From the NCBI GenBank assembly GCA_965220965.1, contig CBDCRI010000001.1, positions 293,532-357,531 on the forward strand: 64,000 nt of DNA, in the 5' to 3' direction. The notes below the pieces were generated by a model, which was not told the DNA's origin, did not search any database, and worked only from the letters and a program-made list of their open reading frames with translations. Shown here one piece after another: positions 2,145-52,930 of the stretch (its first letter is position 1; each line of letters starts with the position of its first letter). Made by a program: the position numbers and the translations under genes. Origin of the DNA: Candidatus Marinacidobacterium sp. (GTDB lineage: Bacteria; Acidobacteriota; Vicinamibacteria; Marinacidobacterales; Marinacidobacteraceae).

Positions 2145-2220
2145 GCCGCGCCTCCTCGCCAGCCTGGCCGCGTCCTTGGATTGTAGGATTCCGCCGCCGG
2201 CCGGCCCCGGCGCTTGGGGG

Positions 2221-18065: not shown

Positions 18066-19049
18066 TCATCCGGGGGCGGGGCCGGCCGCCCTCCCCGCCT
18101 GCGAAGGCCCGTCCGTCGGCGCGGGCCGCCCCGCCCCGAGGCCATGCAGCGCGGCGGGGTCGTAGCGGTGCACGGCGGACAGGATGTCGTCGACCAGGCG
18201 CGCCTCCCTCCCGGTCGAGGGCAGCGCCTCGGCCAGCGAGCCGTAGTGCATCTCGAGCGCGTCCATCAGGAGTCCGCGCAGCGCCTCCAGGTCCGGGGAG
18301 CGCGGCAGCGCGGTCCTCGCCTTCAGGGCCTCCAGCTCGCGCTCCTTGTCGGCGAACCAGTCCTTGATCCGCTGCTTGGACCACTCGCCGCGGCGCACCG
18401 CCTTGTACAGCTCGCGGTCGCGGTCGAGCACCAGGTCGCCGCCGGCGAGGATCTGCTCGCACTCGCAGGCCAAGCGCACGATGTGGTAGGCGAACTTGGT
18501 GTCGAAACCGTGGGCGTCGATCGCCGCCTGGCGCTGCGGATTGGCCCGCTTGGGCCGGCCGTCGAGCTTCTTCAGCTGGGCGTAGGCGTAGCCGCGGAAC
18601 CGGGCGAAGGCGCCTTGGTGAAGGAACAAGCGGCGGTGGTCGCGCACGTGCTCGTAGAGCGCGGTGGAGTGGCGCACGCAGCGCCGCGGGCAGAACAGCG
18701 CGTCCACCATGTTGGGGTTGTTGTCGGCGCACAGGTCGAAGAAGCGCACGAGGGAGTAGATCGTGACATCGTACTGCCTGCGCGTCTGCGCAAACTCGAC
18801 GTGGTGCTGCTGGAACTGGTCGAAGGAGGGCGGCGCCGGACCGAATCCCGGTATGTGCCCGGCGAGGTGCGGGAAGACCTGATGCTTGGGCGGCATGGCG
18901 AACCCGACGATGTCCTCGTCCGAGTTGCCTGGCTCCGCGCAGCCGTAGGCGACCGAGCCGGTGGTCGCCTCGAACATGACGTTGTGCGGCAGCCAGGGCG
19001 GCGGCGTGATCAGCCCCTCCCGGGCCAGCTTTGCGGTGATTGAGGCCAT
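18066..19049 (-). CDS. Predicted nucleotidyltransferase (Pol-beta superfamily, RlaP/DUF4037-like).
   Basis: N-terminal GSVAYGCAEPGNSDEDIVGF (GS...D.D nucleotidyltransferase motif); ~330 aa. Confidence 0.45.
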   Translation of the reverse strand: MASITAKLAREGLITPPPWLPHNVMFEATTGSVAYGCAEPGNSDEDIVGFAMPPKHQVFPHLAGHIPGFGPAPPSFDQFQQHHVEFAQTRRQYDVTIYSLVRFFDLCADNNPNMVDALFCPRRCVRHSTALYEHVRDHRRLFLHQGAFARFRGYAYAQLKKLDGRPKRANPQRQAAIDAHGFDTKFAYHIVRLACECEQILAGGDLVLDRDRELYKAVRRGEWSKQRIKDWFADKERELEALKARTALPRSPDLEALRGLLMDALEMHYGSLAEALPSTGREARLVDDILSAVHRYDPAALHGLGAGRPAPTDGPSQAGRAAGPAPG

Positions 19050-22022: not shown

Positions 22023-22871
22023 CTAGGACGTCTCCAGCGCATGCTTCGTGTCCCACACCGGAGCCGAACTGCCGTCCCGCCTCCAACATCGACGCTCGGC
22101 CAGCTCCTGAAGCAGGTACGGCATTAGCGCTCGCCGGACACGGATGACGCGCTTGCCCGTTTCAGGAATGCCGTACTCGTGCTCGTAGCAGAGCCGCTCG
22201 TCATGGGAAAGCTCCTTGGAAAGGATGAACTCGCGTCTCTCGAACGAGTTCCAATCGTCGTCCCCATCGAGTCCGACAAAGGGCGCTTCGTCGTCTCGCC
22301 ATGCATCGATGGACCGAGCAGGCACGACATCCACGTAGCGATCCTCGAGCGGCCGACTGAACTCGTCACGGCAACCCGCTCTGTACCCTCGCACGTGATA
22401 GCGCCCCCTTGTGCGAACGAGTTCGGATGGCGAAAAGACGAATTCCTGACGGCCGGTTTTGGCTGCGTAGACCAGCCTCACTGGCTCCCTGTCGAGCCAT
22501 GCAGCCACAAATTCCCGAACCGCAGCAGAAGGTGTCGCCGCGGTGAGCGACAAATCGTGTCCTCTGGCCTTGGGCACGGTCGATGCGAATGGGTTTCCCG
22601 GCAAGCCGTTGCCAATCAGCATCAGTGCAAACGCAACGCCCGGATCGATGACTTCGGGCGCCGGTTCAAAGCGTTCGTCCGGCACCAGACATCGTTCCGA
22701 ACTCGGCTTATAAGGTGGCAAGAGGCCGCGAACCCGCCATTCGGAGATCAGGTTCCTTGCGGTGCGCTCGGAAACGCGCGCGAACCTCTGCACATCGCCC
22801 GCTTTGAGGCCTCCTCGCCAGAACAGCATGGTTTCAGCAAAACGGCGTGCAACTGCGCGACCAACATTCAT
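22023..22871 (-). CDS. WYL-domain transcriptional regulator (HTH + WYL), divergently oriented from the cas operon.
   Basis: HTH GDVQRFARVSERTARNLI. WYL-like RLVYAAKTGRQEFVFSPSELVRTRGRYHVRGY. Confidence 0.65.
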   Translation of the reverse strand: MNVGRAVARRFAETMLFWRGGLKAGDVQRFARVSERTARNLISEWRVRGLLPPYKPSSERCLVPDERFEPAPEVIDPGVAFALMLIGNGLPGNPFASTVPKARGHDLSLTAATPSAAVREFVAAWLDREPVRLVYAAKTGRQEFVFSPSELVRTRGRYHVRGYRAGCRDEFSRPLEDRYVDVVPARSIDAWRDDEAPFVGLDGDDDWNSFERREFILSKELSHDERLCYEHEYGIPETGKRVIRVRRALMPYLLQELAERRCWRRDGSSAPVWDTKHALETS

Positions 22872-22976
22872 TACAGATCAAATCTAGGTCAACACCTGCA
22901 ATATTTGCAAGTTTCACTCTCATGCAGATCACGTATGTTAGTCGGCAGTTCGTGTTGTCCAGAGGATACATTTGGG

Positions 22977-23705
22977 ATGCGATTCAGATTGACAGCGCCA
23001 CGCGGTGAGAGTGCGCGGATTCGGTACTTGGACAGCCTCCACGCTGCACTGATCAACGCTTGGACCGCCAGTGGAGCGCAGCCCGAGCAATTGTTGGGGG
23101 GGCGTGCCGGCAACTGGTCCTTCGGGGCAGTGGGCGCCTCGAAATCCAGTGGCTTCGCGCTCAAGTCCGTAGTGATTGGGGCGGAAGACGGCGCCTTGGA
23201 GCCGTTCCTCCAAGACCTAGCTTGCGAAAACGTTCGAAAATCGTCTGTCAATGGCGACGTCATTGATCTTTCCGCTTGGGATCTGGCCCCGGAGGAGCTG
23301 CCGATTGAGTGTCCTCACGGCAGCTCGGCCGTCCTTCCGGCAATCATGCTCTCTCCGCTCGCCGTGTCCAAGCGCGGGGAAAAGAGGCGTTGGCATGACG
23401 ATCTGACGAAGATCGGATCGAACCTCGAGCAGGCGGTCAGCGCGCGTCTGTCGCGACTGACTGGTCGAAAGGTGGACCTTGAGGTTGAACCCGACCGACT
23501 CTACCTTCGAGCGAATCCGAAGCACTCGACGCTGGTTCCTACCCGCACCGCCAGGGGAGCAAGGCCGGCATTCGTGATCGGGACGCTTTGCCCGTTGCTC
23601 ATCCGCGGAAGCATTGAAGACCTCCGTTCAGCCTGGGCACTCGGAATCGGCGAGAAGAATCGCTACGGATTCGGGTGCATTGGCTACGCAGGACAACGCG
23701 CATGA
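22977..23705 (+). CDS. cas6: Cas6 crRNA endoribonuclease.
   Basis: 243 aa with the C-terminal glycine-rich loop GIGEKNRYGFGCIG. First gene of the cas operon. Its stop overlaps the next ATG (ATGA). Confidence 0.8.
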   Translation: MRFRLTAPRGESARIRYLDSLHAALINAWTASGAQPEQLLGGRAGNWSFGAVGASKSSGFALKSVVIGAEDGALEPFLQDLACENVRKSSVNGDVIDLSAWDLAPEELPIECPHGSSAVLPAIMLSPLAVSKRGEKRRWHDDLTKIGSNLEQAVSARLSRLTGRKVDLEVEPDRLYLRANPKHSTLVPTRTARGARPAFVIGTLCPLLIRGSIEDLRSAWALGIGEKNRYGFGCIGYAGQRA

Positions 23706-26695
23706 CGGGCGCACCGCGGGGATTCGCTCACTCGGCAGCCGTTGAGGTCTACGGTGCCTTCCTAGACGAGTGTGTCATTGCGCACGTTGCCAAGGATCGC
23801 GTTGGCGCTCCCGCGAGGACTGCCAATGCAATCGTCGACGGCCGCCCAGTGCGCTTGGTGACGATCAGCGGGAAAGGAGGCTGGTCCCCCGATTCGCAAT
23901 TGCGCGAGCGCTATTCGAAGAACCGCAACGTCAGCCTGCTGGACCACGCGCTCTCCGTGGCGCGCGGTGCGCTCATGTTCTGGCTTGCCAACGCGCCCAG
24001 AGCCTGGTCCGGCGAAAGCGACCTAAAGGAAATAGAGCAGCTAGGGTACAGTGTGGTCTGCATCGCGTTCCTTCACGACATCGACAAGGATCTGGGGTTG
24101 GCGCGCGGGGAGAAAATCCCCGCTGACGCGGTGGCCGAGCGCATGAGGCGCTACGGCATCGATGAGTTTCTCGCAAAGCATGACATCCGCATGTCGCCTG
24201 CAGCGATGCTCAACTACATCGAGGCTGTCGAGGGCACCCAAGTGGCCGGAAGCGCGCCGGCGCCGGATTTCAACGCGCGAATTGCATCCACCTGCCGTTA
24301 CGTCGAGTTGGCCGACAAGCTCGATGGAACCTTCTCGAGCAATGAGCCGGGTGGAGGGGTCGAAGGAGTGGTTGCGTCACTGGGCGACCCAAACCGATGG
24401 CCGGTGCTTGGCGACGATTCGGCACTGAAGCGTTGGGAAAGGATAGAGGTTCACGATCATCTTCACCCCTTTCTCTTGGACGGACTTCAATCGGCACTAT
24501 CCTCCGCCTGTGAGGACCTCTCCGGCCGCCTTCCCTTGGTCGAGGTGGTCCACGGCGGGCGCCTCCTGGCCGTGATTCCGCGAGAGCAAGCGGGACCGAT
24601 CCAAGATCGTGCCCTGGAGCGCTTTCTGCAGGAACTTCCCTACGGCTTGGGCTTCTCGGTCAACAACCGGCTGGCGTGCGAGTTCGTTGGCGGAGCAGCC
24701 TCGTGGCAGGCGTGTCGCGAAGTCATGGACCAAACATCCAACTGGCGTGCCTTCGCAAACCTCCTCGCGCTCCCAAAGCCTTTTGTCCGTGAACACCGTC
24801 AAGCTGTGGACGAGCTTTTTGAGAGCGCGGGCATGTCGAGTTCGTGGAGTTCCATCGACGACGGCGGCGGCGCCACCGCGAAGCCCGCGCTGAATCACCC
24901 CGGAGGATACCCTGCTGACCTGGACATGGAGCCTGCCCATGCGCTGACGTTCCTTGCGATTGCGCTCAACCACAGGGACAGCCCGCGCAAGGGCGGCGCG
25001 CCGGACGCCGCCTCGCGCGAACGGGAACTGACCGACCTGCTGGAGGCCAACGGCACGCCGTTGCCGCGCTTCATCGCGGCGAGCCTTGCGCGTGATGCGC
25101 GGGCGCGGCGGGTCATGCTCGCATTGTGGGCGGTGGCGGAGATATGGAAGCAGGCTGACGACGATCCAGACTCGGCGCAGGAGCTGCTGGACCTCGTCGT
25201 TGGTCGCGGCGGCCTTGCGGGCCTGTGGATTGAAGGCGATGAAGCCCGGCCGGGGCTGGCGGCCCAGGTCGAGGATACGTCGAGTGAAATCACGAGCGCC
25301 CTTCGTGAGCGCTTTGGCGCTCAACTGAAAGGGGCCGCCGCGCGGCCGTTTGACGGCGACCAGCCCCGCAAGCGGTGCATTCTCTGCAACGAGCCGGTCC
25401 GCGAGTCACGGCGGGTGAGGACCGAATCGCGCGCCCACGGCATCAAGTCGTCCGCATTTTCGGGACGGGATCTGCGCAACGACCACCTCGCCTCCCCTTC
25501 CGGCGACACCCACCTTTGCCTAGTGTGCCTCGCCGAGTCACAGCTGCGGCAAGATGCGCAGGAAGAGTTCAAGGGAAGCGGCGACCTTCCCGCACTCATG
25601 TCTTCCCCGACGACGACCGGCCTCTTCGGCGGGCTCGCGTTCCAAAGCGGAGGACCGGGGATCCCCATGGGCCTGAACGACCTCAATCGCCTCTCGATCA
25701 AGAAGGGACGCGTCTACGAAGGCCTCGACTGCCAGAAGCGCCGCATTCGCCTGGCCCGCCTGGAGGCCCAGCCCCGCAAGGATGGCGAGCTCGTCGCCCA
25801 GCTTCGGATGATTCTGCAAGCGGTTCGGCGGCTTGGCCGGCCGATCCACATCTTCCGTGGGGCGCCGCGCCAACACCCCGCCATCTTTCATTCCGATTCG
25901 TTGCCCACATGGCTCGAAAGGCTGCTCGGCGGCGACTCGCTGCGCATAGAACAGCTTGGCGGCGCCATGGCAAAACTGGAGTTGTTCGAGCGCATGGCCG
26001 ACATGCCCGGCCTGGGAATCGAGTGGGCCAAGCAGCTTGCGGATCCCGACCACCTAGTGCGGCTCGGCGCCATTTGCGTTGCGTGGAGCCTGGCGGTCGA
26101 CCGGGAGGGCGCCAGGAACGGCAAACAAGCGCGGTCCAACATTGAAGCAAAGACGCGCGAGCACGCGCTCTCGCTCATCAGAAGCACCGGAGGTGAACCA
26201 GTGAACTTGAAAAACAACGCGGACCCCCTGATTCGGCTCGCATGGCTCGCGACACGCATCCAGAAGCGGAGAGGATTCAAAGATTCAACCGGGAAGCAGC
26301 TGCTTTGCTGGAAAATCGCCGTGGACTTCTACGCGGGCGCTAGGGCTTCGACAACGCAAGATCGAACCGCCCTGATCCTCGGGCTCGCCGGCACGCTTGA
26401 GGAGGAGCTAACGAGAAAGGATGACGCGGCTGCGAAAAAGCACCGCGACGATGAGCTTCGGAAGGACCGAGGGGCAAGTCAAGGCGGCGAGTCGCTTGCC
26501 GATGCTTGCGTCACGTTCGCCGAGCACTTTGCCGACAACGTGTGGGGTGCAGCATTCGGCTCGAAGGAGCCGACCTCGCAGGAGCAGCGGCGCGCGGCGT
26601 CCATTTACCGCTTCGCCTTGCTGGAATCCTATCGCGAGCGCGCGATAGCCGAGTCGGCAAGCGCGGCCTTCAACGACGAAAGCCCGGAATCCTGA
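23702..26695 (+). CDS. CRISPR large subunit with an N-terminal HD nuclease domain and a Cys4 zinc finger (Cas10d-like).
   Basis: HD motifs LLDHALSVARG...VVCIAFLHDIDKDLG. CILCNEP...HLCLVCLAE zinc finger. ~1000 aa, in the large-subunit position. Confidence 0.7.
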   Translation: MTGAPRGFAHSAAVEVYGAFLDECVIAHVAKDRVGAPARTANAIVDGRPVRLVTISGKGGWSPDSQLRERYSKNRNVSLLDHALSVARGALMFWLANAPRAWSGESDLKEIEQLGYSVVCIAFLHDIDKDLGLARGEKIPADAVAERMRRYGIDEFLAKHDIRMSPAAMLNYIEAVEGTQVAGSAPAPDFNARIASTCRYVELADKLDGTFSSNEPGGGVEGVVASLGDPNRWPVLGDDSALKRWERIEVHDHLHPFLLDGLQSALSSACEDLSGRLPLVEVVHGGRLLAVIPREQAGPIQDRALERFLQELPYGLGFSVNNRLACEFVGGAASWQACREVMDQTSNWRAFANLLALPKPFVREHRQAVDELFESAGMSSSWSSIDDGGGATAKPALNHPGGYPADLDMEPAHALTFLAIALNHRDSPRKGGAPDAASRERELTDLLEANGTPLPRFIAASLARDARARRVMLALWAVAEIWKQADDDPDSAQELLDLVVGRGGLAGLWIEGDEARPGLAAQVEDTSSEITSALRERFGAQLKGAAARPFDGDQPRKRCILCNEPVRESRRVRTESRAHGIKSSAFSGRDLRNDHLASPSGDTHLCLVCLAESQLRQDAQEEFKGSGDLPALMSSPTTTGLFGGLAFQSGGPGIPMGLNDLNRLSIKKGRVYEGLDCQKRRIRLARLEAQPRKDGELVAQLRMILQAVRRLGRPIHIFRGAPRQHPAIFHSDSLPTWLERLLGGDSLRIEQLGGAMAKLELFERMADMPGLGIEWAKQLADPDHLVRLGAICVAWSLAVDREGARNGKQARSNIEAKTREHALSLIRSTGGEPVNLKNNADPLIRLAWLATRIQKRRGFKDSTGKQLLCWKIAVDFYAGARASTTQDRTALILGLAGTLEEELTRKDDAAAKKHRDDELRKDRGASQGGESLADACVTFAEHFADNVWGAAFGSKEPTSQEQRRAASIYRFALLESYRERAIAESASAAFNDESPES

Positions 26696-26714
26696 CCCGA
26701 GAGTTTCCAACCAC

Positions 26715-27725
26715 ATGGAGAACATGATGCTCGACCAATTCAATGCGTATCTCAACGACGGCGACCTTACCGAGGAGGTGACCGCCGCCAACGGCAAGGA
26801 CACCTACGTGATGCCCAAGCGGCGCAATGCCGGACATGTGGCCATCGCACTCATCCGCGAGATCGTGGCGCCCACCGTCTTCCGCAATGCGGAGGAGGAA
26901 ATCACCGACATCGAGGACCGGAAGGGCATTCGCCGCGTGCGGGCGACGCCGAACAAGTTCAAGTTCGGGGAGCGCGGCCGGGGCCTGTTGGTGCTGCGCG
27001 CTTGGAACGTCGGTGGCCGGCTGCCGCAAAACCGCACCGCGGTCGGTCAGCGAATGCCGGTCCGTGAGGCGTTGGACCTGAACACCCTAGTGTTCGGCGA
27101 CTCGACCATGTTGGGTACGCGGGTCCTGCCGGTCAAGGCGGCCGTTCAGTACTCCGACGCGCTGAGCACCACGCCGTACCGCGAGGCCGTAGGCGAGAGC
27201 TTTCACCACCGTGGCGACGAGACCGGAACGTTGTGGGACGCAGAGGGAAAGAAGAACACCGAAAACCTGTTTACGCGTCACTTCGTGCGACCCGGGACGA
27301 CGCTGATCCAGATCCTCACCAGCAACGGCCGGCAGCTTCCGCCGATTGGCCTCGACCACCTGCTGCTGAGCCTTGGCCTCGCCGGCTCTTACGGCGGACA
27401 GACCTCGGTGACGGGAGTGAACGTGCGCACGCACATCGCTGGCATCTTCGCCTCGCGTCTTGAGGTGCCAGTTTCGTCACCTTACGAGTTGCTCCGCAAG
27501 GTGCCGGAATCCGGCTCCGCGGACAAGCTGGCAGCCGGGGTGTACCAGGAGATGAAGGAGCACTACCAAACGCGCGCCGATGGCGCCGAAGCGTCAGCGC
27601 ATCAGCGGCAGCTCGTCCATGCGTTCGAGCGCGACGACTCGGAGCTGCGGCGCCGGTATGAAGACGCTGCGCCCAAGATCGCGGACATGTTCGAGGGGTA
27701 CTTCAACCCCGAGAAGAAGGCGTGA
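26715..27725 (+). CDS. cas7: Cas7 backbone subunit (Csc2-like).
   Basis: 336 aa in the Cas7 position. Glycine-rich loop LAGSYGGQTSVTG. Confidence 0.65.
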   Translation: MENMMLDQFNAYLNDGDLTEEVTAANGKDTYVMPKRRNAGHVAIALIREIVAPTVFRNAEEEITDIEDRKGIRRVRATPNKFKFGERGRGLLVLRAWNVGGRLPQNRTAVGQRMPVREALDLNTLVFGDSTMLGTRVLPVKAAVQYSDALSTTPYREAVGESFHHRGDETGTLWDAEGKKNTENLFTRHFVRPGTTLIQILTSNGRQLPPIGLDHLLLSLGLAGSYGGQTSVTGVNVRTHIAGIFASRLEVPVSSPYELLRKVPESGSADKLAAGVYQEMKEHYQTRADGAEASAHQRQLVHAFERDDSELRRRYEDAAPKIADMFEGYFNPEKKA

Positions 27726-27728
27726 ACC

Positions 27729-28391
27729 GTGGCTGCGGCCCTCTTCCCGTTTAAACTGACTGCGCTGTCGCCCTGGGCATGGCACGGGCTCGCCGTGCCA
27801 TCGGGAACCTCGACGCTGAACGATGTCGTCACCGACACCGCAATGGCGTTCGCGACGGCGGCGGCGCTGGGCATGATGCCCCGTTCGCCATGCCTGCCGT
27901 CGGCACCCGACTATCGGAACCACTTGGCCGCCTTGCCCTTCAAGACCGCGCTCTTCACGGGGACCGGCAACCGGCTCAACCGGCCATTGGCGCGCCGCCT
28001 CAACCTCGATCCGGAGTGCGGGATGCCGAAGAGCGTTCACGATGCACGCAACAGCGGCAACGTCAAGGACTACTTCCACATCCACGAGGTCGCGGCGGGA
28101 GCCGTTTTCCACGGGAGCTTTCTCCACGCCGATCCGATGGAGCTGGCATTCGAAGCCTATGGCGAGAGGCCGGAAGGGCTCGTCATCCGGCTGGGTTTGG
28201 GGAGAAACGGCATGGGACTCCTGCAGCGATGCGACGAACAGGCTCCCGTACGGCTCAATCTCCATACGGCGCAACTCTTCGATCCAGACGTCGATCTAAG
28301 GGCGGGGCCGTATCGCCTGCACAACATCCAGCCCAGCGAACCGCTGGATCCTGACGAGGCTTTGCGCATCACCGCCGGTTGGCATCGGTGA
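27729..28391 (+). CDS. cas5: Cas5 subunit (Csc1-like). Probable GTG start.
   Basis: 220 aa in the Cas5 position between cas7 and cas3'. Confidence 0.55.
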   Translation: MAAALFPFKLTALSPWAWHGLAVPSGTSTLNDVVTDTAMAFATAAALGMMPRSPCLPSAPDYRNHLAALPFKTALFTGTGNRLNRPLARRLNLDPECGMPKSVHDARNSGNVKDYFHIHEVAAGAVFHGSFLHADPMELAFEAYGERPEGLVIRLGLGRNGMGLLQRCDEQAPVRLNLHTAQLFDPDVDLRAGPYRLHNIQPSEPLDPDEALRITAGWHR

Positions 28392-28398
28392 ACGGACA

Positions 28399-30453
28399 GT
28401 GATCATCCGTTCCCATTCAGTGCGCATGCTGCCCAGCGGCCTGTCGCCAATGCAGCAAAGCTTGCTGGACTCGGAGCGATTCGTCCGGCTGGTGTCGGCG
28501 CCCACGGGCTCCGGAAAGTCCTACGCATTCATGCGCGCGGTGCTGGAGCGCGATGCGCGCGTGCTGTTCATCGTGCCCACGAAACGCCTGCTGCAGAACC
28601 TGATCGAGGATGCGCGTGAACAGGCGGACGAGCACTGGCGCGATCAGGGCCTCGACGAAGCGCGGCGCACCGCCTGGACCAATGAGCGAATTGTCGAGTG
28701 GTCCGGCAATCAGGCCGACGACGGCGGCGGGAGCCTGGCGGCCAAACGCGCCGGACAGCTCTTTTCGATCAGCGAAGAAAGAACCGGTGGGGTCATCTTC
28801 GCCATCCCTGAGGTGGTGGTCTCGTCGATCTCGGGAATCCGCATCAAGGGGGCAAGCGCAATCAACCCCTTCGAATTCGTGCACGCCTTCGACCATGTCG
28901 TGTTCGACGAGTTCCACACAATCGACGACCGCGCCTTTGGCCTGGCCAGCCTTCTGTCGCTGCTCGCGGTGACGCAACGGCAAGGCAAGGTGTCGCTGCT
29001 CTCCGCCACGCCGATAGACGTGACCGGAGTTCTTGCCCGGTGCGGCGTGGGGCCAGACAAGATCGAGAGCATCCCCGAGGAGATTGTCGATGGGCATCCG
29101 CCAGGGCATCGTGAGATACATGGCGACGTGTCGGTGTCCGTAGACCCGCGCACTTTGCCGGAATTGGTCGAGGCGAACATCGATTCCGTGCGAACCTCGG
29201 TCGCGGGCCAGCGCACGGTGATAGTCATCTACGACTCCCTGCAGCGCCTGCGGGAGGACGAGTCGAACCTGCGAGCGAAGCTTCGCGCCGCCGGCATCGG
29301 AGAGGACAGGATTTGCGCCATCAACTCCATCGAAGACTCCAGGCGGGCGCCAGACGAGCCCCGCCGCGGGCGAAGGTTTGCGGATCCGCGCGACTTCGAC
29401 GTGCTCATCTGCACATCGACCGTAGAAGTCGGCGTCACGTTCCGCAGCGATCTCATGTTCATGGAGCCCGGATTTGGAGAGGCCAGCTTCGTTCAGCGGG
29501 TGGGCCGAGTGTCGCGCGGCGCGGACGACGGGCAGGTCTTCGTGTCGTTGCCAGAACGCACGCGCGCGCGCAACGCATGGACACGACGTGTCGAGACCGT
29601 CATTCGGGAGAATGCGGAGCTGACGATTCAGGAGTTCACCGAGAATGTCCTTCGTGACGTTAGAAGGCGGCTTGAGCCGACGCGCAAGGAAGCCGAAGCC
29701 GACTGGTCCGCTCCCAACACCGCACTTTCGTTCTACCGGCGCCCCTCGTGGCGCGGCGCATTCTGGGCGGCGCTTTTCATTGTCGCGATCCGGCGGCAGA
29801 AAATGACGGTACAAAGGGCGGCGCGGGAGCGGCTGCGCGCGCTCTCGCCCAGCACCGTGAGGTTCGTCGACGCCAAGATCGGCGACATCATGTCCGTGGA
29901 TGCAGTGAACAACAACCTGCGCAGCGCGTCGCAGCCACACCGGGCATGGGCGAACGCTCTTCTTGCAAGCGCTCTGACCTACCGCGACATCGGCCGGACC
30001 ATCCGTGTTGTCGATCCCGACGGCTGCAGCCATGTGGTGTCGGAATCCTATCTCCGGCGAGCCACCGATGTTCTAAGGCGGCACATCGTTTCCGACGACA
30101 GCGGGGAACCTGTGATCCAATTGCTGTCCCGCAGCCTTCGGGAGGAGGAGAGCAAGGGGTCCTCCGGCCAGCCGAGGGCGCAGAGGATGACGCTCTACGT
30201 CCGTTCCCCGATCGGCGAAGGAGACTTCGCTCTGCCGATCTACGAACGGGAAAGGGGAACCGAGCAGCTCAACGTGCGTCTTGTCAAGGAATGGCGCAAT
30301 CAGTTCGCCAACTTCCTGCCAGCGCCGGGCGAGAAAGACATGCATCCGCGGAAGAAAGTGATGGCCGCCGCCACGGCACTGGTCGAGGTCATCGGCCGGC
30401 CGCCGCATGAAGAGGACTATGAGGATTCTGCAGAAAGCGCGATGTTTGCGTGA
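28399..30453 (+). CDS. cas3: Cas3' SF2 helicase (no HD domain).
   Basis: VSAPTGSGKSYAF (motif I), VVFDEFHTID (motif II), LLSATP (motif III), FVQRVGRVSRG (motif VI). No HD domain at either terminus. Confidence 0.8.
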   Translation: MIIRSHSVRMLPSGLSPMQQSLLDSERFVRLVSAPTGSGKSYAFMRAVLERDARVLFIVPTKRLLQNLIEDAREQADEHWRDQGLDEARRTAWTNERIVEWSGNQADDGGGSLAAKRAGQLFSISEERTGGVIFAIPEVVVSSISGIRIKGASAINPFEFVHAFDHVVFDEFHTIDDRAFGLASLLSLLAVTQRQGKVSLLSATPIDVTGVLARCGVGPDKIESIPEEIVDGHPPGHREIHGDVSVSVDPRTLPELVEANIDSVRTSVAGQRTVIVIYDSLQRLREDESNLRAKLRAAGIGEDRICAINSIEDSRRAPDEPRRGRRFADPRDFDVLICTSTVEVGVTFRSDLMFMEPGFGEASFVQRVGRVSRGADDGQVFVSLPERTRARNAWTRRVETVIRENAELTIQEFTENVLRDVRRRLEPTRKEAEADWSAPNTALSFYRRPSWRGAFWAALFIVAIRRQKMTVQRAARERLRALSPSTVRFVDAKIGDIMSVDAVNNNLRSASQPHRAWANALLASALTYRDIGRTIRVVDPDGCSHVVSESYLRRATDVLRRHIVSDDSGEPVIQLLSRSLREEESKGSSGQPRAQRMTLYVRSPIGEGDFALPIYERERGTEQLNVRLVKEWRNQFANFLPAPGEKDMHPRKKVMAAATALVEVIGRPPHEEDYEDSAESAMFA

Positions 30454-30982
30454 ACTGGCGGAGGAGCGCGGCCTGCACGGCCTTTACTTCCAGCATGTGG
30501 CCTTGTGCCGACGACGTGCCTGGCTGCACCTGATGGGCGCGACGCACGCCGCCCATCACTCTCGCGTCCAAAGGGGCCTTGCGCTGCATCAGACCGAGAA
30601 GCGCCCCGGAGAGGCGCCACGGGGACTTGGCATTGCGCCTGACGCAATCGACTTCAAGCGCCGCGTTGTCATCGAAAGGAAGGGGGGCGCCGGAGCAAGC
30701 GACGCGGTTTCCAGGCAGGCGCTGTTCTACGCCGCATTCATGACGGGAGCCTCCGGAGAGCACTGGCAAGCGGAGGTTCACGTCTACGGATCCCGCGCGA
30801 AGAGGACCTACCATCTCACTGAGGATGCGCTGGACCGGCTCATCCGCGACGCGCAGGAGAGCCGTGGCTTGGCAGCCGGGCCGGCGCCACCGGCCCGTCG
30901 CATTCCGCTCTGCGAAGCCTGCAGCTGCAATCCCCTGTGCTGGGATGAGGAGCATGATGGACACAGTGATCGTACCGCGTGA
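30407..30982 (+). CDS. cas4: Cas4 RecB-like nuclease with a 4-Cys cluster.
   Basis: DAIDF...VVIERK (D-ExK motif). Cys at the N-terminus plus CEACSCNPLC at the C-terminus. Confidence 0.8.
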   Translation: MKRTMRILQKARCLRELAEERGLHGLYFQHVALCRRRAWLHLMGATHAAHHSRVQRGLALHQTEKRPGEAPRGLGIAPDAIDFKRRVVIERKGGAGASDAVSRQALFYAAFMTGASGEHWQAEVHVYGSRAKRTYHLTEDALDRLIRDAQESRGLAAGPAPPARRIPLCEACSCNPLCWDEEHDGHSDRTA

Positions 30983-31925
30983 CGCACGGCTGAGCCGTCA
31001 CGAAAACGCGCTGGTGGTCCTGTCTGACGCTGGGCGCAAGGCGATTCCCCTGCACGGGGTAAAGCACGTCGTGTGCATGGGCGACGGTTCGATCTCCATT
31101 CGCCTGCTCAAGGACATGGGACGAAACGGCATTCGCTTCTCGGTGCTCGATGCAGGGGGACGATTTCTGGGCGCATTCGAGCCTGAGGATGAAACGCCTT
31201 CGGGCCGAGTCCGAGTCGGCCAAGCTTCGCTGTTTCTGGATGAGGCGGCCCGCCTTCGTCTGGCCAAGCTGATCGTGGCTGCGCAGGTGAAGTCCATGCG
31301 AGGGCTGCTGCAACGCTATCGGCGGAATGGCGTCACCGGCATCGAAGCATCCCTGGACGGCATTCAGAGCGCCCTCGCCCTGGCAAGTGAAGCCGCCAGC
31401 ATCGAGCAGCTCATGGGCGCAGAAGGGCATGCTCGCGCATTCCTGCACGATGCGTTCAAGGAGGTTTCAATGGATGCCCGCCTCGACCGCAGAGTTCGAC
31501 GTCCGCCTTCAGATCCCGTCAACTGCCTGATGTCGTTCTTCAACATGCTGCTCTACTCCGCGTGCGCGAGCGAACTCGCCAAGACCCACCTGGATCGGAG
31601 CATTTCGTTCCTTCATGCTCCAGGCACCGGCAGGCGTTCGCTCTCGATCGACATGGCCGAGAACTTCAGGCCGGTGTTGTCGGACGCCCTTCTGCTGTCC
31701 ATTTTTCGCCGGGGCCATGCGGACCGGTCATGGTTCGATCGGTCGCCCGGAGTATACCTGCTCAGCGAGAAGGGGCGAATCAAGGCCACGCAGCGCTTTT
31801 GGGGGCGCATCGAGGAAAGCGTCGGCGAACAGACGCTTCGGCAGGCGATCCACCGCCAGTGCCTGTCCTTGGAGCGCGAGGCGTTGGGAATCGGGCGGTT
31901 CAGGCCTTTCGTCTGGCGGGGTTGA
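30954..31925 (+). CDS. cas1: Cas1 integrase.
   Basis: 324 aa starting MMDTVIVPRDARL. Its position and length are typical for Cas1. Confidence 0.85.
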   Translation: MMDTVIVPRDARLSRHENALVVLSDAGRKAIPLHGVKHVVCMGDGSISIRLLKDMGRNGIRFSVLDAGGRFLGAFEPEDETPSGRVRVGQASLFLDEAARLRLAKLIVAAQVKSMRGLLQRYRRNGVTGIEASLDGIQSALALASEAASIEQLMGAEGHARAFLHDAFKEVSMDARLDRRVRRPPSDPVNCLMSFFNMLLYSACASELAKTHLDRSISFLHAPGTGRRSLSIDMAENFRPVLSDALLLSIFRRGHADRSWFDRSPGVYLLSEKGRIKATQRFWGRIEESVGEQTLRQAIHRQCLSLEREALGIGRFRPFVWRG

Positions 31926-31928
31926 TCG

Positions 31929-32228
31929 ATGTTCGTATTGGTTTCCTACGACGTGCCCGCCAAGCGAACGGCGATATTCAGGAAGCTGCTGAAGGGGTTC
32001 CTTGTGCACGAGCAGGCTTCCGTTTTCATGGGCGACCTGCCGGAGTCGGAACTCATCAAGTTGACTTCCGAGATATCGAACAAGATTGGACCGGATGATC
32101 GGATACTGAAGCTGGTGTGCCGAAACCGCCACAACGTGGAGGTGGAGCAGCTCAGCAAGGACGCCCTCGGAGGGCCGATGCGCCAGGACGAAGATGCGTG
32201 GCACGGAAAAAACTGGTCTGTGCTCTGA
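31929..32228 (+). CDS. cas2: Cas2.
   Basis: 99 aa starting MFVLVSYDV, the classic Cas2 N-terminus. Confidence 0.85.
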   Translation: MFVLVSYDVPAKRTAIFRKLLKGFLVHEQASVFMGDLPESELIKLTSEISNKIGPDDRILKLVCRNRHNVEVEQLSKDALGGPMRQDEDAWHGKNWSVL

Positions 32229-32357
32229 CCCATTCATTTACGCGCTTGGAAGAAAATCTGCCGATGGCCGGGCGTCAGGCGCAGTTTTCCAGCCTTTCCG
32301 GCGCGCAATGGTAACTACATGCTGCAATAGGGCAACAAAAACCCTATGATTTCGAGG
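32229..32357 (+). promoter_or_regulatory. CRISPR leader for array 1.
   Basis: AT-richer non-coding stretch between the cas2 stop and the first repeat. Confidence 0.5.
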
Positions 32358-33827
32358 GTTCCCAATCCCCATGAGGGGTAATGAGGAGGACGTTCGAACG
32401 AAGCTTAAGCAGCATACGTTGTTCCCAATCCCCATGAGGGGTAATGAGGAGGTTGTGGAGTACACCCAGAACCTAAAGAACATGAGTTCCCAATCCCCAT
32501 GAGGGGTAATGAGTACTGCGACCCGCCCTATGTCAACAGCGCCGTGAACGGTTCCCAATCCCCATGAGGGGTAATGAGCCCGTCAACCTGCCGAAGCGCA
32601 TCCCGTGGTTCAAAGTTCCCAATCCCCATGAGGGGTAATGAGCGGCAGCCTTGCGCTCGCGCTTGGCCGGTTGGTTCATGTTCCCAATCCCCATGAGGGG
32701 TAATGAGACGGACGCATTCACTCAAACCGTCAGCCAGAGCATAGGTTCCCAATCCCCATGAGGGGTAATGAGAAATGCTGAAAGGCGTGTACAAGTTGCT
32801 CAAGGAAAAGTTCCCAATCCCCATGAGGGGTAATGAGGGTTTGTTTCACCAATGAGGAAAGACAATGCTGCAAAGGTTCCCAATCCCCATGAGGGGTAAT
32901 GAGTATGCCGTGTACTGGATCAAGCAGGCCGTGCAGCGCAGCGGTTCCCAATCCCCATGAGGGGTAATGAGTATCCCGCTGTGGCGCATCACGGCGTAAG
33001 CCGTCTGACGTCGTTCCCAATCCCCATGAGGGGTAATGAGCAGCGACTTCTGAACCGAACTGCCGGCAAGCGTTCCCGGTTCCCAATCCCCATGAGGGGT
33101 AATGAGGTTCAGGTCGATGGTCATCGCAGCAACTCCAGCAGCACGTTCCCAATCCCCATGAGGGGTAATGAGTCTAGAGCAAGGAGGCTCTAAGCAATGG
33201 AGAACAAAGGGTTCCCAATCCCCATGAGGGGTAATGAGCCAGTTGCACTCAAGTATGAAGGCATCGCCGATCCGGGTTCCCAATCCCCATGAGGGGTAAT
33301 GAGATGCAAACCTTCACTTTCGCCGAAACCCCTGCCGGAACGTTTCCCAATCCCCATGAGGGGTAATGAGTTGGCCAGCCCTCGGCAATGCGGGTCAAGG
33401 ATGAGGTTGTTCCCAATCCCCATGAGGGGTAATGAGTTACGGACCGTGCTCTAGTCGCTTCGCGACCCAAGCCCTTTACCAATCCCCATGAGGGGTAATG
33501 AGATGGGAGCAGAGCCACCCGTAGAACTGCAGGACGGACAGTTCCCAATCCCCATGAGGGGTAATGAGGATGACAAGCTGAGGCGCAAGGACGCCTGCAA
33601 GGGTGGTTCCCAATCCCCATGAGGGGTAATGAGAGGGTGACGTGCCTTATGGCTTTTGGTACTGTGAGACGTTCCTAATCCCCATGAGGGGTAATGAGGA
33701 CTTCTGCGCCGACGTCGACGGGGGGCTGACGCGCGTTCCCAATCCCCATGAGGGGTACCCAGTTGAACGCTGACCGCTTCGAGGTTTGCGCGGCGGCCCG
33801 TTCCCACTCCCGATGAGGGGCATGGGT
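32358..33827 (+). CRISPR. CRISPR array 1: 23 copies of the 28-bp repeat GTTCCCAATCCCCATGAGGGGTAATGAG, with 32-37-bp spacers.
   Basis: Repeats counted directly, at 32358, 32421, 32486, 32551, 32615, 32680 and onward. The distal repeats degenerate (GTTTCCC.., GTTCCTA.., ..GGGGTACCCAG, GTTCCCACTCCCGATGAGGGGCATGGGT). Confidence 0.95.
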
Positions 33828-34162: not shown

Positions 34163-34984
34163 TCAGGGCCGCATTGCCCCGCTTGCCGGCGGCGCTCCCC
34201 GCAGGCACTTCAGGTGGCTCTGCAGTTCGGCGTCGGCCTCCAGGTTGGCCATGAGCGCCAGCAGCACGTCGTCGAAGTCGCATCTTGGCCAGGCCAGGGT
34301 CTCGTCCGCCTCGAAAGTCTCGCGCCACGCCCTCTCCTGCTCCCCGTCGAAGTTGAGCGTCCAATCGTGCAGGCGGACCTTGTTGTCCAGCGTGATCGCG
34401 TCGCCGTGCTTGGCCGTCAGCCAAGCGGCGTCGTAGAGGTCCCTGGCCTGAACGCGCCGGTCATCTCCCACCAGCGCGTTCAGCTTGAGGCTGGCGAGCG
34501 TGGGCATGTCATAGACGGCGAGCCCGTCCACCATGACGATTCGGTCCTGGTCAAGGCGGGGCTTGCGGATGCCGTCGCGCACGTTGACGTCGATTTTGGC
34601 GCGGAAGGGCTCCGCGAATCCGGCGTGGCGGAACCAAAGGCGGACGTAGCCGCGCCCGTGCTGCTTGACGTCGAGCCGCTCGACTTCGAGGTCCTTGCGT
34701 TGCGCCAACGTCCTGCCGACCCTTTCCACCACGTCGACGCGCCTGGCCACGTCAAGGTCCAAGTCCATGGAAGGGCGCGTCAGCCCGTAGGCGGCCGCCA
34801 GCGCGGTCCCGCCCTTGAGCGCAAACCACCGCTGGCCCTGCGGCGGGCCAAGGGACAGCCCCCGGACGACATGGACCAGCACGCCCAGCAGGGCGCGCTC
34901 GCGGGGCGAGAGTGCAACCTCCGGCGGCGGCGTGCCGCCGGTCAAGTCGAAAGCCCGTGGCGCATGTGCGTTCCCTTCTCCCAA
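34163..34984 (-). CDS. Second AbiEii/DUF1814-family nucleotidyltransferase.
   Basis: WFALKGGTALAAAYGLTRPSMDLDLDV nucleotidyltransferase motif. Confidence 0.7.
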   Translation of the reverse strand: MGEGNAHAPRAFDLTGGTPPPEVALSPRERALLGVLVHVVRGLSLGPPQGQRWFALKGGTALAAAYGLTRPSMDLDLDVARRVDVVERVGRTLAQRKDLEVERLDVKQHGRGYVRLWFRHAGFAEPFRAKIDVNVRDGIRKPRLDQDRIVMVDGLAVYDMPTLASLKLNALVGDDRRVQARDLYDAAWLTAKHGDAITLDNKVRLHDWTLNFDGEQERAWRETFEADETLAWPRCDFDDVLLALMANLEADAELQSHLKCLRGAPPASGAMRP

Positions 34985-35574
34985 TCCGCATCCGGCGACA
35001 GGTCGCGCGTCCAGCGGCTCCAGAGTCGCAGCGCCTCCCCCTCAAGGGCCGCCGCCAAGGCGCGCACCAGCCGGTGGAGGTGCCCGAACTGGGCCTCAGT
35101 CCACAGCCACTTGGCCACCGAAGGCCCGTCGTAGGGGCCTGGGAAGCCCGTTGGCCGGCTGGCCAACCAGTCCCATGCGCCGTCCGCGATGGCCCGGTCA
35201 TGGCGCGCCGCCCACACGGGAGCCGCCGAGCTCCCCTGCGGGTGCCCGATCAGGCGCAGTGACGGCCGGGCGTCGAACAGCCGGTCCCAGCCAAGCAGAT
35301 TTGCCGGCGTGCGCAACGTGAAGCCGTTTCTGGCCTTGTTGGCGAGCAGCATCTCCATCCCGTTTCCGGTGCGGCCTTCGGCGGGAACGAACCAAGAGCC
35401 CTCGGCGTGCCAGTCGCCGCCTGACGGGCAGTCGGGATCGACGAGGTTGAGCGCATGAATGCCGGTCAGGTACTGGCTCACGCTGGTCGGGGGAATGCGA
35501 ACGGGAATGGCCTGCGCCCAGGCCGGCGCGGGCGCATCAGGGCCTCTTCGGGTCGGTTGGTGCCTGTCGGCCAT
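34942..35574 (-). CDS. Hypothetical protein immediately upstream of and overlapping the AbiEii-like gene; possible cognate antitoxin.
   Basis: 210-aa ORF whose 3' end overlaps the AbiEii-like start by ~40 nt. No AbiEi signature recognised. Confidence 0.3.
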   Translation of the reverse strand: MADRHQPTRRGPDAPAPAWAQAIPVRIPPTSVSQYLTGIHALNLVDPDCPSGGDWHAEGSWFVPAEGRTGNGMEMLLANKARNGFTLRTPANLLGWDRLFDARPSLRLIGHPQGSSAAPVWAARHDRAIADGAWDWLASRPTGFPGPYDGPSVAKWLWTEAQFGHLHRLVRALAAALEGEALRLWSRWTRDLSPDADWEKGTHMRHGLST

Positions 35575-37021: not shown

Positions 37022-37412
37022 AGGCTGCCCCGCCCGTGCGGGGATGACCCCTCAGAAGCCTAGATTTTCATCACTTTCTGATAGGCTGCCCCGCCCCTGC
37101 GGGGATGAACCCAAACAGGCAGCCACGCACTTCGACGAATTGGCGGCCGCCCCGCCAGCGCGGGGATGGCCCTTGGAAACGGCGGGGTTGATCACTCGGG
37201 TGGAGGATGGCCCCGCCTGCGCGGGGATGGACCCTTCGGCGTGTGTTTCGACGGGCTTTTCATCGAGTTAGCCCCGCCTGCGCGGGGATGGACCCTCGGG
37301 TATTCCTCGTGAAATGCTTTTGGATCAATTAGCCCCGCCAGCGCGGGGATGAACCCACAGCCATGTTGCGACCGGCCGAAAGCTGGCGATGGCGCCGCCC
37401 ATGCGGGGATGG
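37022..37412 (+). CRISPR. CRISPR sub-array 2a: 7 degenerate 29-bp repeats, 61-bp period.
   Basis: Repeats of the form GGCTGCCCCGCCCGTGCGGGGATGACCC and TAGCCCCGCCTGCGCGGGGATGGACCC at a 61-bp period. Confidence 0.85.
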
Positions 37413-37948
37413 GGCCAGGCTTCTGTTGAAGCCTCGGCGAGGGGTCGCCGCGTGCCTGTCAGAGCGGGCGCGGACCGCAAAGCGGCCGCGCCGCATGCTT
37501 CGGTTCGCGGCCGGCGTGCATGCCACGTCCCCACCGGGTTTTCGCGAGGCGCCAGAGGCAGGCATGGGAGGCCGCTGAACCGTCGCTTGCCGCCTATGCC
37601 TGCCTCGACGTAAAGCCTGGGAAGCCCGCCCCTAAGTCAGGGAAGGCCCGGCGGTGGGGGCCCGACTTTCGGCGTGCCTGTCGCGCTCAAGGATCAGGGT
37701 GCCGGTCCGGGCGCGCTCCCACCCAGGATGGCCCATCCATGCCGTGACCGGGGAGGCTCCGTCCGATGACGCGGCCGGCTCGGCGCCGGCCTGCCACGCC
37801 GACCGATGGCGGTGGCGGCGGTGAGGAGCCGATCCCTGGCGCTGGGCCCACGCCAGGTGTTGTACACTGGCGGCGTTGCGCCGTTCATGGGGGAAATCGA
37901 TTTAACGGATCAGACATTGTGAGTTTCAACAAGGACTTAATGGATAGG
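37413..37948 (+). repeat. Leader-like duplicated element A (~536 bp).
   Basis: Begins inside a truncated repeat (..GGGGATGG|GGCCAGGCTTCTGTTGAAGCCTCGGCGAGGGG). Ends with a leader-like 3' end abutting a consensus repeat. Confidence 0.8.
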
Positions 37949-38157
37949 GTCGGCCCCGCCAGCGCGGGGATGGGCCTTTGCCGCCGCACATGTCGATGAG
38001 GCGCGAGCCGTTAGCCCCGCCAGCGCGGGGATGGTCCCCGAGGTGAGACGGCCATTAGGTCGGAAGAAGAAGTTAGCCCCGCCCGAGCGTGGATGGCCCC
38101 TCGATTCGGACGCAGCTTGGTCTAATTGCTTCGTTAGCCCCGCCAGCGCGGGGATGG
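37949..38157 (+). CRISPR. CRISPR sub-array 2b: 4 repeats.
   Basis: GTCGGCCCCGCCAGCGCGGGGATGGGCC, then three copies of GTTAGCCCCGCC.GCG.GGATGG. Confidence 0.85.
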
Positions 38158-38592
38158 AGCGAGCCTTCTGTTGCAGCCTCGGCGAGGGGAGGCTCTGTAC
38201 CTGCCAGAATGGGCACGGACCGCGCGGATCACAAACAATGTCCGCCTCGACGTCAAGCGAAGGAAGCCCGCCACGATGTCAGGGAAGGCACGGCGGAGGC
38301 GGCCCTGACTCTCGGCGTGGCTGTCGCGCTCAGGGATCAGGTTGCCGGTCCGGGCGCGCTCCCACCCAGGATGACCCGTCGATGCCGTGACCGGGGAGGC
38401 CCAGTCCGATGACGCGGCCGGCTCTGCGCTGGCCTGCCACGCCGACCGATGGCGGTGGCGGCGGCGAGGAGCCAAGCCCTGACGCCTGGCCTTCGACATG
38501 TGTTGTACACTGGAGGCGCGCCGTTCATGGGGGGAGGATATCGAGTTAACCGATCAGACATTGTGAGTTGCAACAAGGGCTTAAGGGATAGG
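38158..38592 (+). repeat. Leader-like duplicated element B (~435 bp; lacks a ~110-bp internal segment present in A and C).
   Basis: AGCGAGCCTTCTGTTGCAGCCTCGGCGAGGGG ... TTGTACACTGG ... CTTAAGGGATAGGG. Confidence 0.8.
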
Positions 38593-39044
38593 GTTGGCCC
38601 CGCCAGCGCGGGGATGGACCCCTCTTGAACACCATCGGCGCAACGCTCAAGCCGTTGGCCCCGCCAGCGCGGGGATGGACCCGCTATGTTGGGGAAGGGT
38701 GTCTCGTCGAGAAGGTTGGCCCCGCCTGCGCGGGGATGGACCCCTCTTGGCAAAGATGAATTTTGCCACGCAATCGTTGGCCCCGCCTGCGCGGGGATGG
38801 ACCCTGCATTCGACGGCAGCTTGCTCTCATTGCTTCGTTGGCCCCGCCAGCGCGGGGATGGACCCCTCATTGAAATGATGACCAGTGACTCCACCGAGCT
38901 TGCCCCGCCCGAGCGGGGATGATCCCTTGAGAAAGTGGCCAGCGACGCCAATGCTCCAGTTGGCCCCGCCCGCGCGGGGGAGAGCCCGTTGCATGTTGAC
39001 GCCGCGATCGCGAGCGAAGCTTTGCCCCGCCCACGCGGGGATGG
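38593..39044 (+). CRISPR. CRISPR sub-array 2c: 8 repeats.
   Basis: GTTGGCCCCGCC[AT]GCGCGGGGATGGACCC at a 61-bp period. The last repeats degenerate. Confidence 0.9.
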
Positions 39045-44366: not shown

Positions 44367-44445
44367 AATCGAATCAAAAAGACGGCGTTTTTGATTCGAT
44401 TAGGGGGCTTAATCGCATCAAAAAACGCTATTATTTGATTCGATT
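44367..44445. promoter_or_regulatory. Two 35-bp palindromic operator-like sites (AATCGAATCAAAAA-N7-TTTTTGATTCGATT and AATCGCATCAAAAAAC..TTATTTGATTCGATT) upstream of the Fic gene.
   Basis: Near-perfect inverted repeats in an AT-rich island 20-100 bp upstream of the ATG at 44464. Confidence 0.6.
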
Positions 44446-44463
44446 AGCGGGAGAACGTCGATC

Positions 44464-52918: not shown

Positions 52919-52930
52919 GAGCGCACGGGG

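Follow-up and report, generated by a model that had tools for sequence, protein, structure and literature searches.

A probable type I-D CRISPR-Cas cassette of a sequence-divergent, non-cyanobacterial lineage in Candidatus Marinacidobacterium

What kind of CRISPR-Cas system has the gene order of type I-B and a nuclease domain on its large subunit? We addressed this question for a cassette at positions 22023–33827 of a 64-kb stretch of the Candidatus Marinacidobacterium sp. genome (hereafter the window). With a probability of roughly 90%, we read it as a complete type I-D cassette belonging to a non-cyanobacterial bacterial lineage and horizontally acquired into a high-GC defence island. The original prediction, made from the bare letters of the window, had seen I-B gene order joined to I-D-like domain architecture and proposed an intermediate or unclassified type I variant. 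This proposal was not supported, given matches to I-D profiles, a fold match to a type I-D Cascade, an internal cas11d start within the large-subunit gene, the absence of a GGDD motif, and a Cas3' without an HD domain. The cassette thus adds a member to an I-D lineage that has been little studied but is already classified; it is no new kind of system. Three aspects are mildly new: its great sequence distance from every studied I-D system, adaptation genes that look I-B-like, and a regulator of BrxR/CapW type accompanied by a conserved palindrome as its candidate operator. The cassette is apparently a working immune system.

Gene content and subtype

The cassette comprises one minus-strand gene (22023–22871) followed by eight plus-strand cas genes, a leader, and an array, and all nine genes are intact. 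Translated open reading frames (ORFs) were typed with PADLOC profiles, Pfam, and NCBIfam. The predicted gene set and order—cas6, large subunit, cas7, cas5, cas3', cas4, cas1, cas2, array—was recovered in full and at the predicted coordinates, with the following features:

22023–22871, minus strand: BrxR/CapW-family WYL transcriptional regulator, 282 aa, divergent from the cas operon
22896–22909, no strand: palindrome CTGCAA-N3-TTGCA, candidate operator in the regulator/cas6 intergenic region
22977–23705, plus strand: cas6d, pre-crRNA endoribonuclease, 242 aa (PADLOC Cas6d, Pfam Cas_Cas6_C)
23702–26695, plus strand: cas10d large subunit, 997 aa (PADLOC Cas10_Id, Foldseek 7sba_I)
about 23909–24511, plus strand: HD nuclease domain, N-terminal in cas10d (H82, H125-D126, D205)
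25376–25528, plus strand: Cys4 zinc finger of cas10d
26189–26196, plus strand: internal Shine-Dalgarno (SD) sequence GGAGGTGA within cas10d
26201–26695, plus strand: predicted cas11d small subunit, 164 aa, from an in-frame internal GTG at cas10d residue 834
26715–27725 (alternative start 26727), plus strand: cas7d/csc2 backbone subunit, 336 aa (Pfam Csc2, TIGR03157, PADLOC)
27729–28391, plus strand: cas5d/csc1, 220 aa (PADLOC Cas5d)
28399–30453, plus strand: cas3' helicase-only subunit, 684 aa, without HD domain (PADLOC Cas3d, Pfam DEAD)
30407–30982, plus strand: cas4, 191 aa (Pfam Cas_Cas4, PADLOC Cas4d)
~30957–31925, plus strand: cas1, about 322 aa, overlapping the end of cas4 (Pfam Cas1)
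31929–32228, plus strand: cas2, 99 aa (Pfam CRISPR_Cas2, PADLOC Cas2b)
32229–32357, plus strand: leader, 129 bp, with inverted repeat GCGC...GCGC at 32242–32282
32358–33827, plus strand: CRISPR array, 23 copies of a 28-nt repeat and 22 spacers of 35–41 nt

The ATG chosen for the large subunit is the start of a 100%-identical database protein (P0001), and the start of cas1 was set by where its homologues begin. Residue numbers of the large subunit refer to the 997-aa product, while the PADLOC scan used a 1006-aa translation. A 508-aa ORF covering cas6 (22179–23705) was discarded as a high-GC artefact, the real cas6 product having 242 aa and the WYL gene lying on the opposite strand. The public ENA gene call for an identical contig (~22203–23705 of the window) fuses cas6 into a 500-aa ORF and misses this opposite-strand regulator, and one homologue of the large subunit has been deposited under the name "hypothetical protein."

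Which subtype do the individual proteins point to? In hidden Markov model (HMM) typing for Cas10d, Cas8b, Csc1, and Csc2, I-D-labelled PADLOC profiles matched every effector protein. The large subunit matches Cas10_Id at E = 9.8e-224 (residues 19–997 of the 1006-aa translation), and three further proteins match I-D profiles over their full length: Cas3' (Cas3d, E = 2.8e-124), Cas6 (Cas6d, E = 7.8e-69; also Pfam Cas_Cas6_C at 2.7e-10, over cutoff), and Cas5 (Cas5d, E = 3.5e-59). Cas4 does so over nearly its full length (Cas4d, E = 3.5e-44; Pfam Cas_Cas4, 7.5e-16). The PADLOC match of Cas7 is weaker and partial (Cas7d, E = 2.8e-12, with four Cas7d models matching); the protein also exceeds the cutoffs of Pfam Csc2 (4.3e-12; 46.3 bits, cutoff 25.5) and NCBIfam TIGR03157 (38.4 bits, cutoff 38). 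A Cas8b-type large subunit accompanied by an HD-containing Cas3 elsewhere, which would have told against I-D-like architecture, is not what the typing returned: no Cas8b profile matches the large subunit, and the gene content of the cassette includes no separate HD gene (Cas3''). With no Cas8b match and with I-D-labelled matches throughout the effector, the locus types as I-D.

The "I-B" part of the original impression nevertheless has some substance, because Cas1 and Cas2 score better on I-B than on I-D profiles. Cas1 (Pfam Cas1, 1.2e-68) has as its best subtype model the I-B model TIGR03641, at 217 bits (below the 304-bit cutoff), versus 152 bits for the I-D model TIGR04093. Cas2 (Pfam CRISPR_Cas2, 5.2e-14) reaches 69 bits on Cas2b versus 30 bits on Cas2d in PADLOC. 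Gene order agrees as well: the canonical I-B order is cas6-cas8b-cas7-cas5-cas3-cas4-cas1-cas2, and the cassette reproduces it with Cas10d replacing Cas8b. This resemblance does not extend to the effector proteins, none of which leans toward I-B. In PADLOC, Cas3' scores 414 bits on I-D profiles versus 40 bits on the best I-B profile, Cas6 scores 230 bits on Cas6d versus 21 bits on Cas6b, and Cas7 and Cas5 match I-D profiles only. The cassette further differs from type I-B in its ~1000-aa Cas10d with an HD nuclease and in a Cas3 that lacks one.

Could the locus therefore be an unclassified I-B/I-D hybrid, or an intermediate on a path from I-D to I-B, that deserves its own subtype or variant? 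Beyond gene order and the scores of Cas1 and Cas2, such a reading can draw on the curated NCBI I-D equivalog models, which miss Cas10d and Cas5d and leave Cas3' just under cutoff (cas3_cyano, 67.4 bits, 1.7 bits short of 69.1). It can also draw on effectors that lack pairwise similarity to the model I-D effector proteins, and on a published evolutionary model in which other type I systems arose from I-D as the HD domain shifted onto Cas3' (PMC10212523). We consider it quite unlikely, however: dedicated I-D-labelled profiles already span the lineage's proteins full length, and the defining I-D features are all present. Effector gene order is known to differ between I-D lineages, notably in the positions of cas3' and cas6 (PMC10212523), and adaptation modules have been swapped among I-A, I-B/I-G, and I-D (archaeal CRISPR survey, PMC3973734); thus, the order and the mosaic adaptation module do not place the locus outside I-D. 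On a more far-reaching reading, the lineage would be the living I-D branch nearest to the proposed passage from I-D to I-B, as it joins I-B synteny and an I-B-like Cas1-Cas2 pair with a 28-nt repeat, a BrxR-type regulator, and effectors that pairwise comparison with studied I-D systems does not recognize. We regard this as rather doubtful, because no effector profile leans to I-B. If it were so, the lineage would merit formal variant status, and its protospacer-adjacent motif (PAM), CRISPR RNA (crRNA) handle, or cleavage might differ from those of the Synechocystis, Microcystis, and Sulfolobus models.

Nuclease, helicase, and predicted small subunit

The HD domain on the large subunit, a key structural signature of type I-D (PMC3973734), had been read by eye together with a Cys4 finger, and alignments of 20–22 homologues confirm both. 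In these alignments H82, H125-D126, K129, D130, and D205 are invariant, as are the finger cysteines C559, C562, C606, and C609. Across 62 diverse relatives (20–60% identity), H125, D126, K129, and D205 are also invariant, H82 is kept in at least 90%, and C559 is the only finger cysteine that is invariant.

Cas10d is related to Cas10, and a type III-like system—one whose Cas10-family subunit signals via cyclic oligoadenylates and whose target is RNA—would fit that kinship, as would the presence of Cmr2 and nucleotide cyclases among structural matches without significance (Foldseek, E = 2.6–3.8). The active-site evidence runs the other way. The GG[DE][DE] motif occurs in none of the 62 diverse relatives; a single GGED, in 1 of 28 locus proteins, is not conserved. 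(A GG pair at residues 330–331 was tried as a remnant of GGDD and dropped, as it is not conserved in the 62-sequence alignment.) The single conserved H82 ahead of the H125-D126 pair suggests the non-permuted, Cas3''-type order, and Cas10d is known to lack the permutation found in type III Cas10 (PMC10212523). The cassette also has a single cas7 and a Cas3' helicase, unlike type III, and its gene content reveals no CARF or ancillary effector. A type III-like system is therefore scarcely credible, and type I-D remains the reading that we pursue.

Does the predicted structure of the large subunit agree with its profile matches? We modelled the protein with AlphaFold2 from 22 sequences; the mean predicted local distance difference test score (pLDDT) is 58.7, and the model is reasonable for residues ~70–550. 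In a Foldseek search of the PDB, its sole significant match is 7sba_I, a chain of a type I-D Cascade (E = 4.6e-7, probability 1.0), with an alignment that spans the whole protein at 13% identity and a template modelling (TM) score of 0.34–0.36. Chain I of 7SBA (899 residues) is in all likelihood Cas10d, as no other I-D subunit appears long enough by the gene lengths of Synechocystis. Given the pLDDT and TM values, we take the fold match as supportive, not conclusive, for the Cas10d label.

Cas3' had been described as helicase-only, with HD at neither end, and Pfam and the conservation pattern agree on this point. All superfamily 2 (SF2) helicase motifs are present, with Walker A, DEFH, SAT, and QRxGRxxR invariant, and the only Pfam domains are DEAD and Helicase_C. 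Because the helicase core begins at about residue 30, there is no room for an N-terminal HD domain, and beyond residue 420 no H, D, E, C, or K is conserved. Overall, the nuclease, helicase, and integrase residues of the cassette proteins are conserved.

Type I-D systems encode their small subunit inside cas10d, and we looked for such an internal Cas11 start with a codon-level scan of in-frame starts in the window and 27 related loci (28 sequences). One in-frame GTG/ATG in the 3' third of cas10d is strongly conserved, occurring in 25 of 28 sequences and lying at 26201 (residue 834) in the window. It is preceded by an SD-like motif in 23 of the 25 loci (GGAGGTGA in the window). Where a Gly-Gly pair is present at this site, as in most loci, it is encoded GGA GG(T/A), so that the GGAGG core is kept—a sign of selection at the nucleotide level. 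In the three most distant loci, GGAGG or AAGGAG precedes an ATG that lies two codons farther downstream. Furthermore, gene callers have placed stand-alone ORFs on other contigs that begin exactly at this start (P0211). The predicted 164-aa product falls in a region that is modelled, at low confidence, as all-helical.

This position has a counterpart in a studied system. Synechocystis Cas11d, a 17-kDa protein, starts at M830 of Cas10d, 8 bp downstream of a GA-rich ribosome-binding site (bioRxiv 10.1101/2020.04.18.045682); the equivalent start here is V834, and the products are of similar size (about 17–18 kDa). An hhalign alignment, co-linear but non-significant, places the Met column of our family on M830. 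The cas11d-inside-cas10d signature of I-D is thus present, and the conserved start and SD motif suggest that Cas11d is translated. The internal start is widely conserved in I-D, and a small subunit is made by internal translation in I-B as well (PMC10212523). This gene-within-a-gene arrangement is that of I-D, I-B, and I-C.

A cassette shared across phyla

How widespread is this cassette? More than 120 database proteins are related to the large subunit at 64–73% identity, and among 1.84 billion cluster representatives it has 195 clusters at E ≤ 0.001. A scan of species-representative genomes yielded the 27 related loci, from roughly a dozen bacterial lineages. They come from metagenome-assembled genomes (MAGs) labelled Latescibacterota, Binatia, Spirochaetia, Thermodesulfobacteriota, Vicinamibacterales and other Acidobacteriota, Alpha- and Gammaproteobacteria, Rhodothermales, Entotheonella, and Dehalococcoidia, and three more distant loci (32–33% identity) belong to Desulfamplus, Desulfocicer, and Competibacteraceae. 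The order regulator (minus strand), cas6, cas10d, cas7, cas5, cas3', cas4, cas1, cas2 holds in 27 of 27 loci, a few of them truncated or interrupted. A 28-nt repeat with a CCCC-ATGA-GGGG core and a TAATGAG tail follows cas2 in 26 of 27, with a median period of 64–66; the contig of the 27th locus ends inside cas1. Gene order and repeat are therefore characters of the lineage and no peculiarity of the window locus.

The genes flanking the cassette are not shared between loci, and the search for conserved flanking genes as a sign of carriage by a mobile element was accordingly negative among them. Within the window, GC content is 0.70–0.76 across most of the sequence versus 0.57–0.65 at 22–34 kb, with flanks at 0.70–0.75. 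The GC dip, the conserved cassette, and the unshared flanks together indicate that the unit of horizontal transfer is the cassette from regulator to array. Across loci L001–L027, Cas10d identity is 50–67% and Cas7 identity up to about 80% between MAGs of very different phyla. Entotheonella is a sponge symbiont, and one shared habitat may have allowed frequent exchange of the cassette between phyla.

Where does the lineage stand relative to studied I-D systems? A 2023 review recognizes four Cas10d lineages in I-D, one of them predominantly in non-cyanobacterial bacteria (PMC10212523), and, in the passages searched, the 2025 classification update mentions for I-D only the transposon-associated (CAST) form (PMC12669027). 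The I-D system of Synechocystis sp. PCC 6803 (pSYSA CRISPR1; 7SBA) has an identical parts list, including a divergent WYL regulator, as well as a downstream array and a large subunit whose fold matches ours. Its genes run WYL (minus strand), cas3', cas10d, cas7d, cas5d, cas6, cas4, cas1d, cas2, array—with cas3' first and cas6 after cas5d, whereas the window cassette opens with cas6 and has cas3' after cas5d. The Synechocystis repeat is 37 nt, giving 8-nt and 29-nt handles (PMC10212523), as opposed to 28 nt here; our pSYSA comparison recovered a 30-nt core. The Synechocystis Cas1 and Cas2 also differ from those of the cassette, which are nearer to I-B profiles than to cyanobacterial I-D. In BLASTP searches against pSYSA, only Cas3' (26%, E = 5e-8, helicase core), Cas1 (27%), Cas4, and Cas2 find a match. 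Thus, the lineage is very distant from the studied I-D system.

The array consists of 23 copies of the 28-nt repeat GTTCCCAATCCCCATGAGGGGTAATGAG at 32358–33827, the length that had been predicted; the spacers, put earlier at 32–37 bp, in fact measure 35–41 nt, mostly 36–38 (n = 22). The predicted fold of the repeat is a G-C stem of 4 bp capped by a tetraloop, with the 7 nt after it unpaired. The last two, leader-distal copies of the repeat are degenerate, as would be expected if the array is transcribed and gains spacers from the cas2 side. Just past the cas2 stop, the leader contains an inverted repeat (32242–32282) whose GCGC/GCGC arms are invariant in the window and about 21 related loci; RNAalifold found almost no covariation in it, and a protein-binding site, a leader element, and a hairpin are all conceivable. 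Scans detected no sigma-70-like promoter or intrinsic-terminator-like site in the regulator/cas6 intergenic region or the leader, and neither array region of the window matches a CRISPR repeat family or other RNA family in Rfam. The neighbouring spacers 4 and 5 (32579–32679) are alike, with 83% matches over a 65-bp period in Tandem Repeats Finder and ~70% identity between the spacers, and may derive from two variants of one target region.

Arrays of the related loci carry 5–66 unique spacers. None of their 841 spacers (mode 37 nt) is common to two loci, which argues for active acquisition. This observation bears on the possibility that the cassette is decaying or repurposed, for example as an interference-dead regulatory system or for use by a mobile element in the manner of I-D CASTs. 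I-D CASTs do exist (PMC9881144; PMC12669027), the cassette is clearly mobile between phyla, and protospacers were not found in the searches described below. Against this, the nine genes are intact and their regions for nuclease, helicase, and Cas1 are conserved, Pfam and PADLOC scans of neighbouring ORFs revealed no Tn7 or TniQ genes, the flanks differ between loci, and the arrays are diverse. We judge decay or repurposing to be very improbable.

The divergent WYL regulator that had been seen beside the operon (22023–22871, minus strand) clearly belongs to that family. The window protein alone stays under the Pfam WYL cutoff (E = 1e-3), but 19 of 19 homologues match WYL (best 1.5e-12) and 18 of 19 match an HTH family. 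A profile of the 19 homologues aligns nearly full length (profile span 9–256) with residues 15–254 of BrxR 7t8k at E = 8e-24, and it also matches CapW. The regulator therefore resembles BrxR/CapW proteins (7T8K, 7TB5, 9C5G) in its HTH and WYL domains and in its divergent position beside a defence operon, with a palindrome between the two. BrxR and CapW are known as regulators of bacteriophage exclusion (BREX) and of cyclic oligonucleotide-based antiphage signaling systems (CBASS), while the present regulator is part of a CRISPR-Cas cassette. Its position and orientation are kept in 24 of 27 related loci. WYL regulators are frequent in I-D (PMC10212523), but BLASTP detects no pairwise similarity between the WYL protein and the Synechocystis I-D regulator Sll7009.

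Within the 105 bp between the regulator and cas6 lies the palindrome CTGCAATATTTGCA (22896–22909), which is unique in the 64-kb window, where 0.05 chance matches are expected. Of the related loci, 14 each have one exact copy, invariably in this intergenic region, and most of the others have near-variants. We infer that it is a candidate operator of the WYL regulator.

Several results weigh against assigning the cassette to type I-D and deserve to be taken together. BLASTP of Cas10d, Cas7d, Cas5d, and Cas6 against pSYSA proteins returned nothing. Searches of Cas10d against the PDB (phmmer, and profiles of 20 and 62 sequences) and hhalign against Synechocystis Cas10d gave nothing significant, and sequence searches of Cas7d, Cas5d, and Cas3' against the PDB were likewise negative. 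The NCBIfam Csc3 and Csc1 models match neither Cas10d nor Cas5d, and NCBIfam found no family match in ten distant Cas10d relatives, hence no transitive link to the curated Csc3 model. As similarity to studied I-D effectors is absent or marginal, the I-D label of Cas10d, Cas5d, and Cas6d leans on architecture, on the labels of third-party profiles, and on a single fold match obtained with a mediocre model. Finally, comparison of the spacers with phage and plasmid databases, IMG/VR, and the related loci revealed no protospacer and hence no PAM. The whole array matched nothing among INPHARED phages and had weak partial matches only among PLSDB plasmids; the PAM-proximal 24 nt of spacers 1–3 had no match in IMG/VR; and the 841 lineage spacers, searched against the window and all loci, gave only partial matches of 20–28 nt in GC-rich sequence, which we judged to be chance.

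How would such a cassette work? Reasoning from the gene complement and from studied I-D systems, we envisage the following scheme. The divergently transcribed WYL regulator probably binds CTGCAA-N3-TTGCA in the shared promoter region and controls cas expression. The array would be transcribed from the leader beside cas2, and Cas6d may cut the 28-nt repeat at or near the 3' base of the CCCC/GGGG hairpin. By analogy with the family, the resulting crRNA would carry a 7–8-nt 5' handle (..UAAUGAG), a ~37-nt spacer, and a 3' hairpin, and would assemble with Cas5d, a Cas7d backbone, Cas10d, and Cas11d made from the GTG at 26201. As in studied I-D systems, the complex would form a PAM-dependent R-loop on DNA and then recruit the helicase-only Cas3', while the HD domain of Cas10d, whose catalytic residues are conserved, would supply the DNA nuclease. 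Cas1, Cas2, and Cas4, closest to I-B-type modules, would insert new spacers of 35–41 nt at the leader end.

Significance and genomic surroundings

Loci of this lineage can look odd by eye, as curated NCBI models leave Cas10d and Cas5d unnamed, whereas the CCTyper/PADLOC profile set resolves the locus as I-D. The lineage illustrates how far I-D can diverge with its hallmarks—HD on Cas10d, an internal cas11d, and a WYL regulator—kept, and how regulator, cas genes, and array travel together between phyla as a single unit. Genome editing based on I-D might also draw on it for an alternative effector, one with a compact repeat of 28 nt, although nothing here indicates differing properties.

What surrounds the cassette in the window? 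A second CRISPR region at 37022–40230 has I-E-like 29-nt repeats (GTTGGCCCCGCCTGCGCGGGGATGGACCC) with a 61-bp period; no I-E cas genes occur among the window ORFs scanned. This region is built of several tandem modules, each a leader-like segment with a short array, and the separators (roughly 0.4–0.5 kb) share segments of up to 300 bp that are mutually 73–92% identical. Directly past the I-D array lies a gene for an AbiEii nucleotidyltransferase toxin (34163–35041, minus strand; Pfam 1.1e-16, PADLOC 1.4e-22), and the ORF adjacent upstream of it is a possible AbiEi partner. The wider surroundings (3–8903, 18066–19049, 44413–45696, and 52919–53980) look like a defence or helicase island, with genes for an SNF2-family helicase (cut by the window edge), a 1748-aa DEAD and UvrD fusion protein, an RlaP-family nucleotidyltransferase, a DUF4172-Fic protein, and a C5 cytosine methyltransferase.

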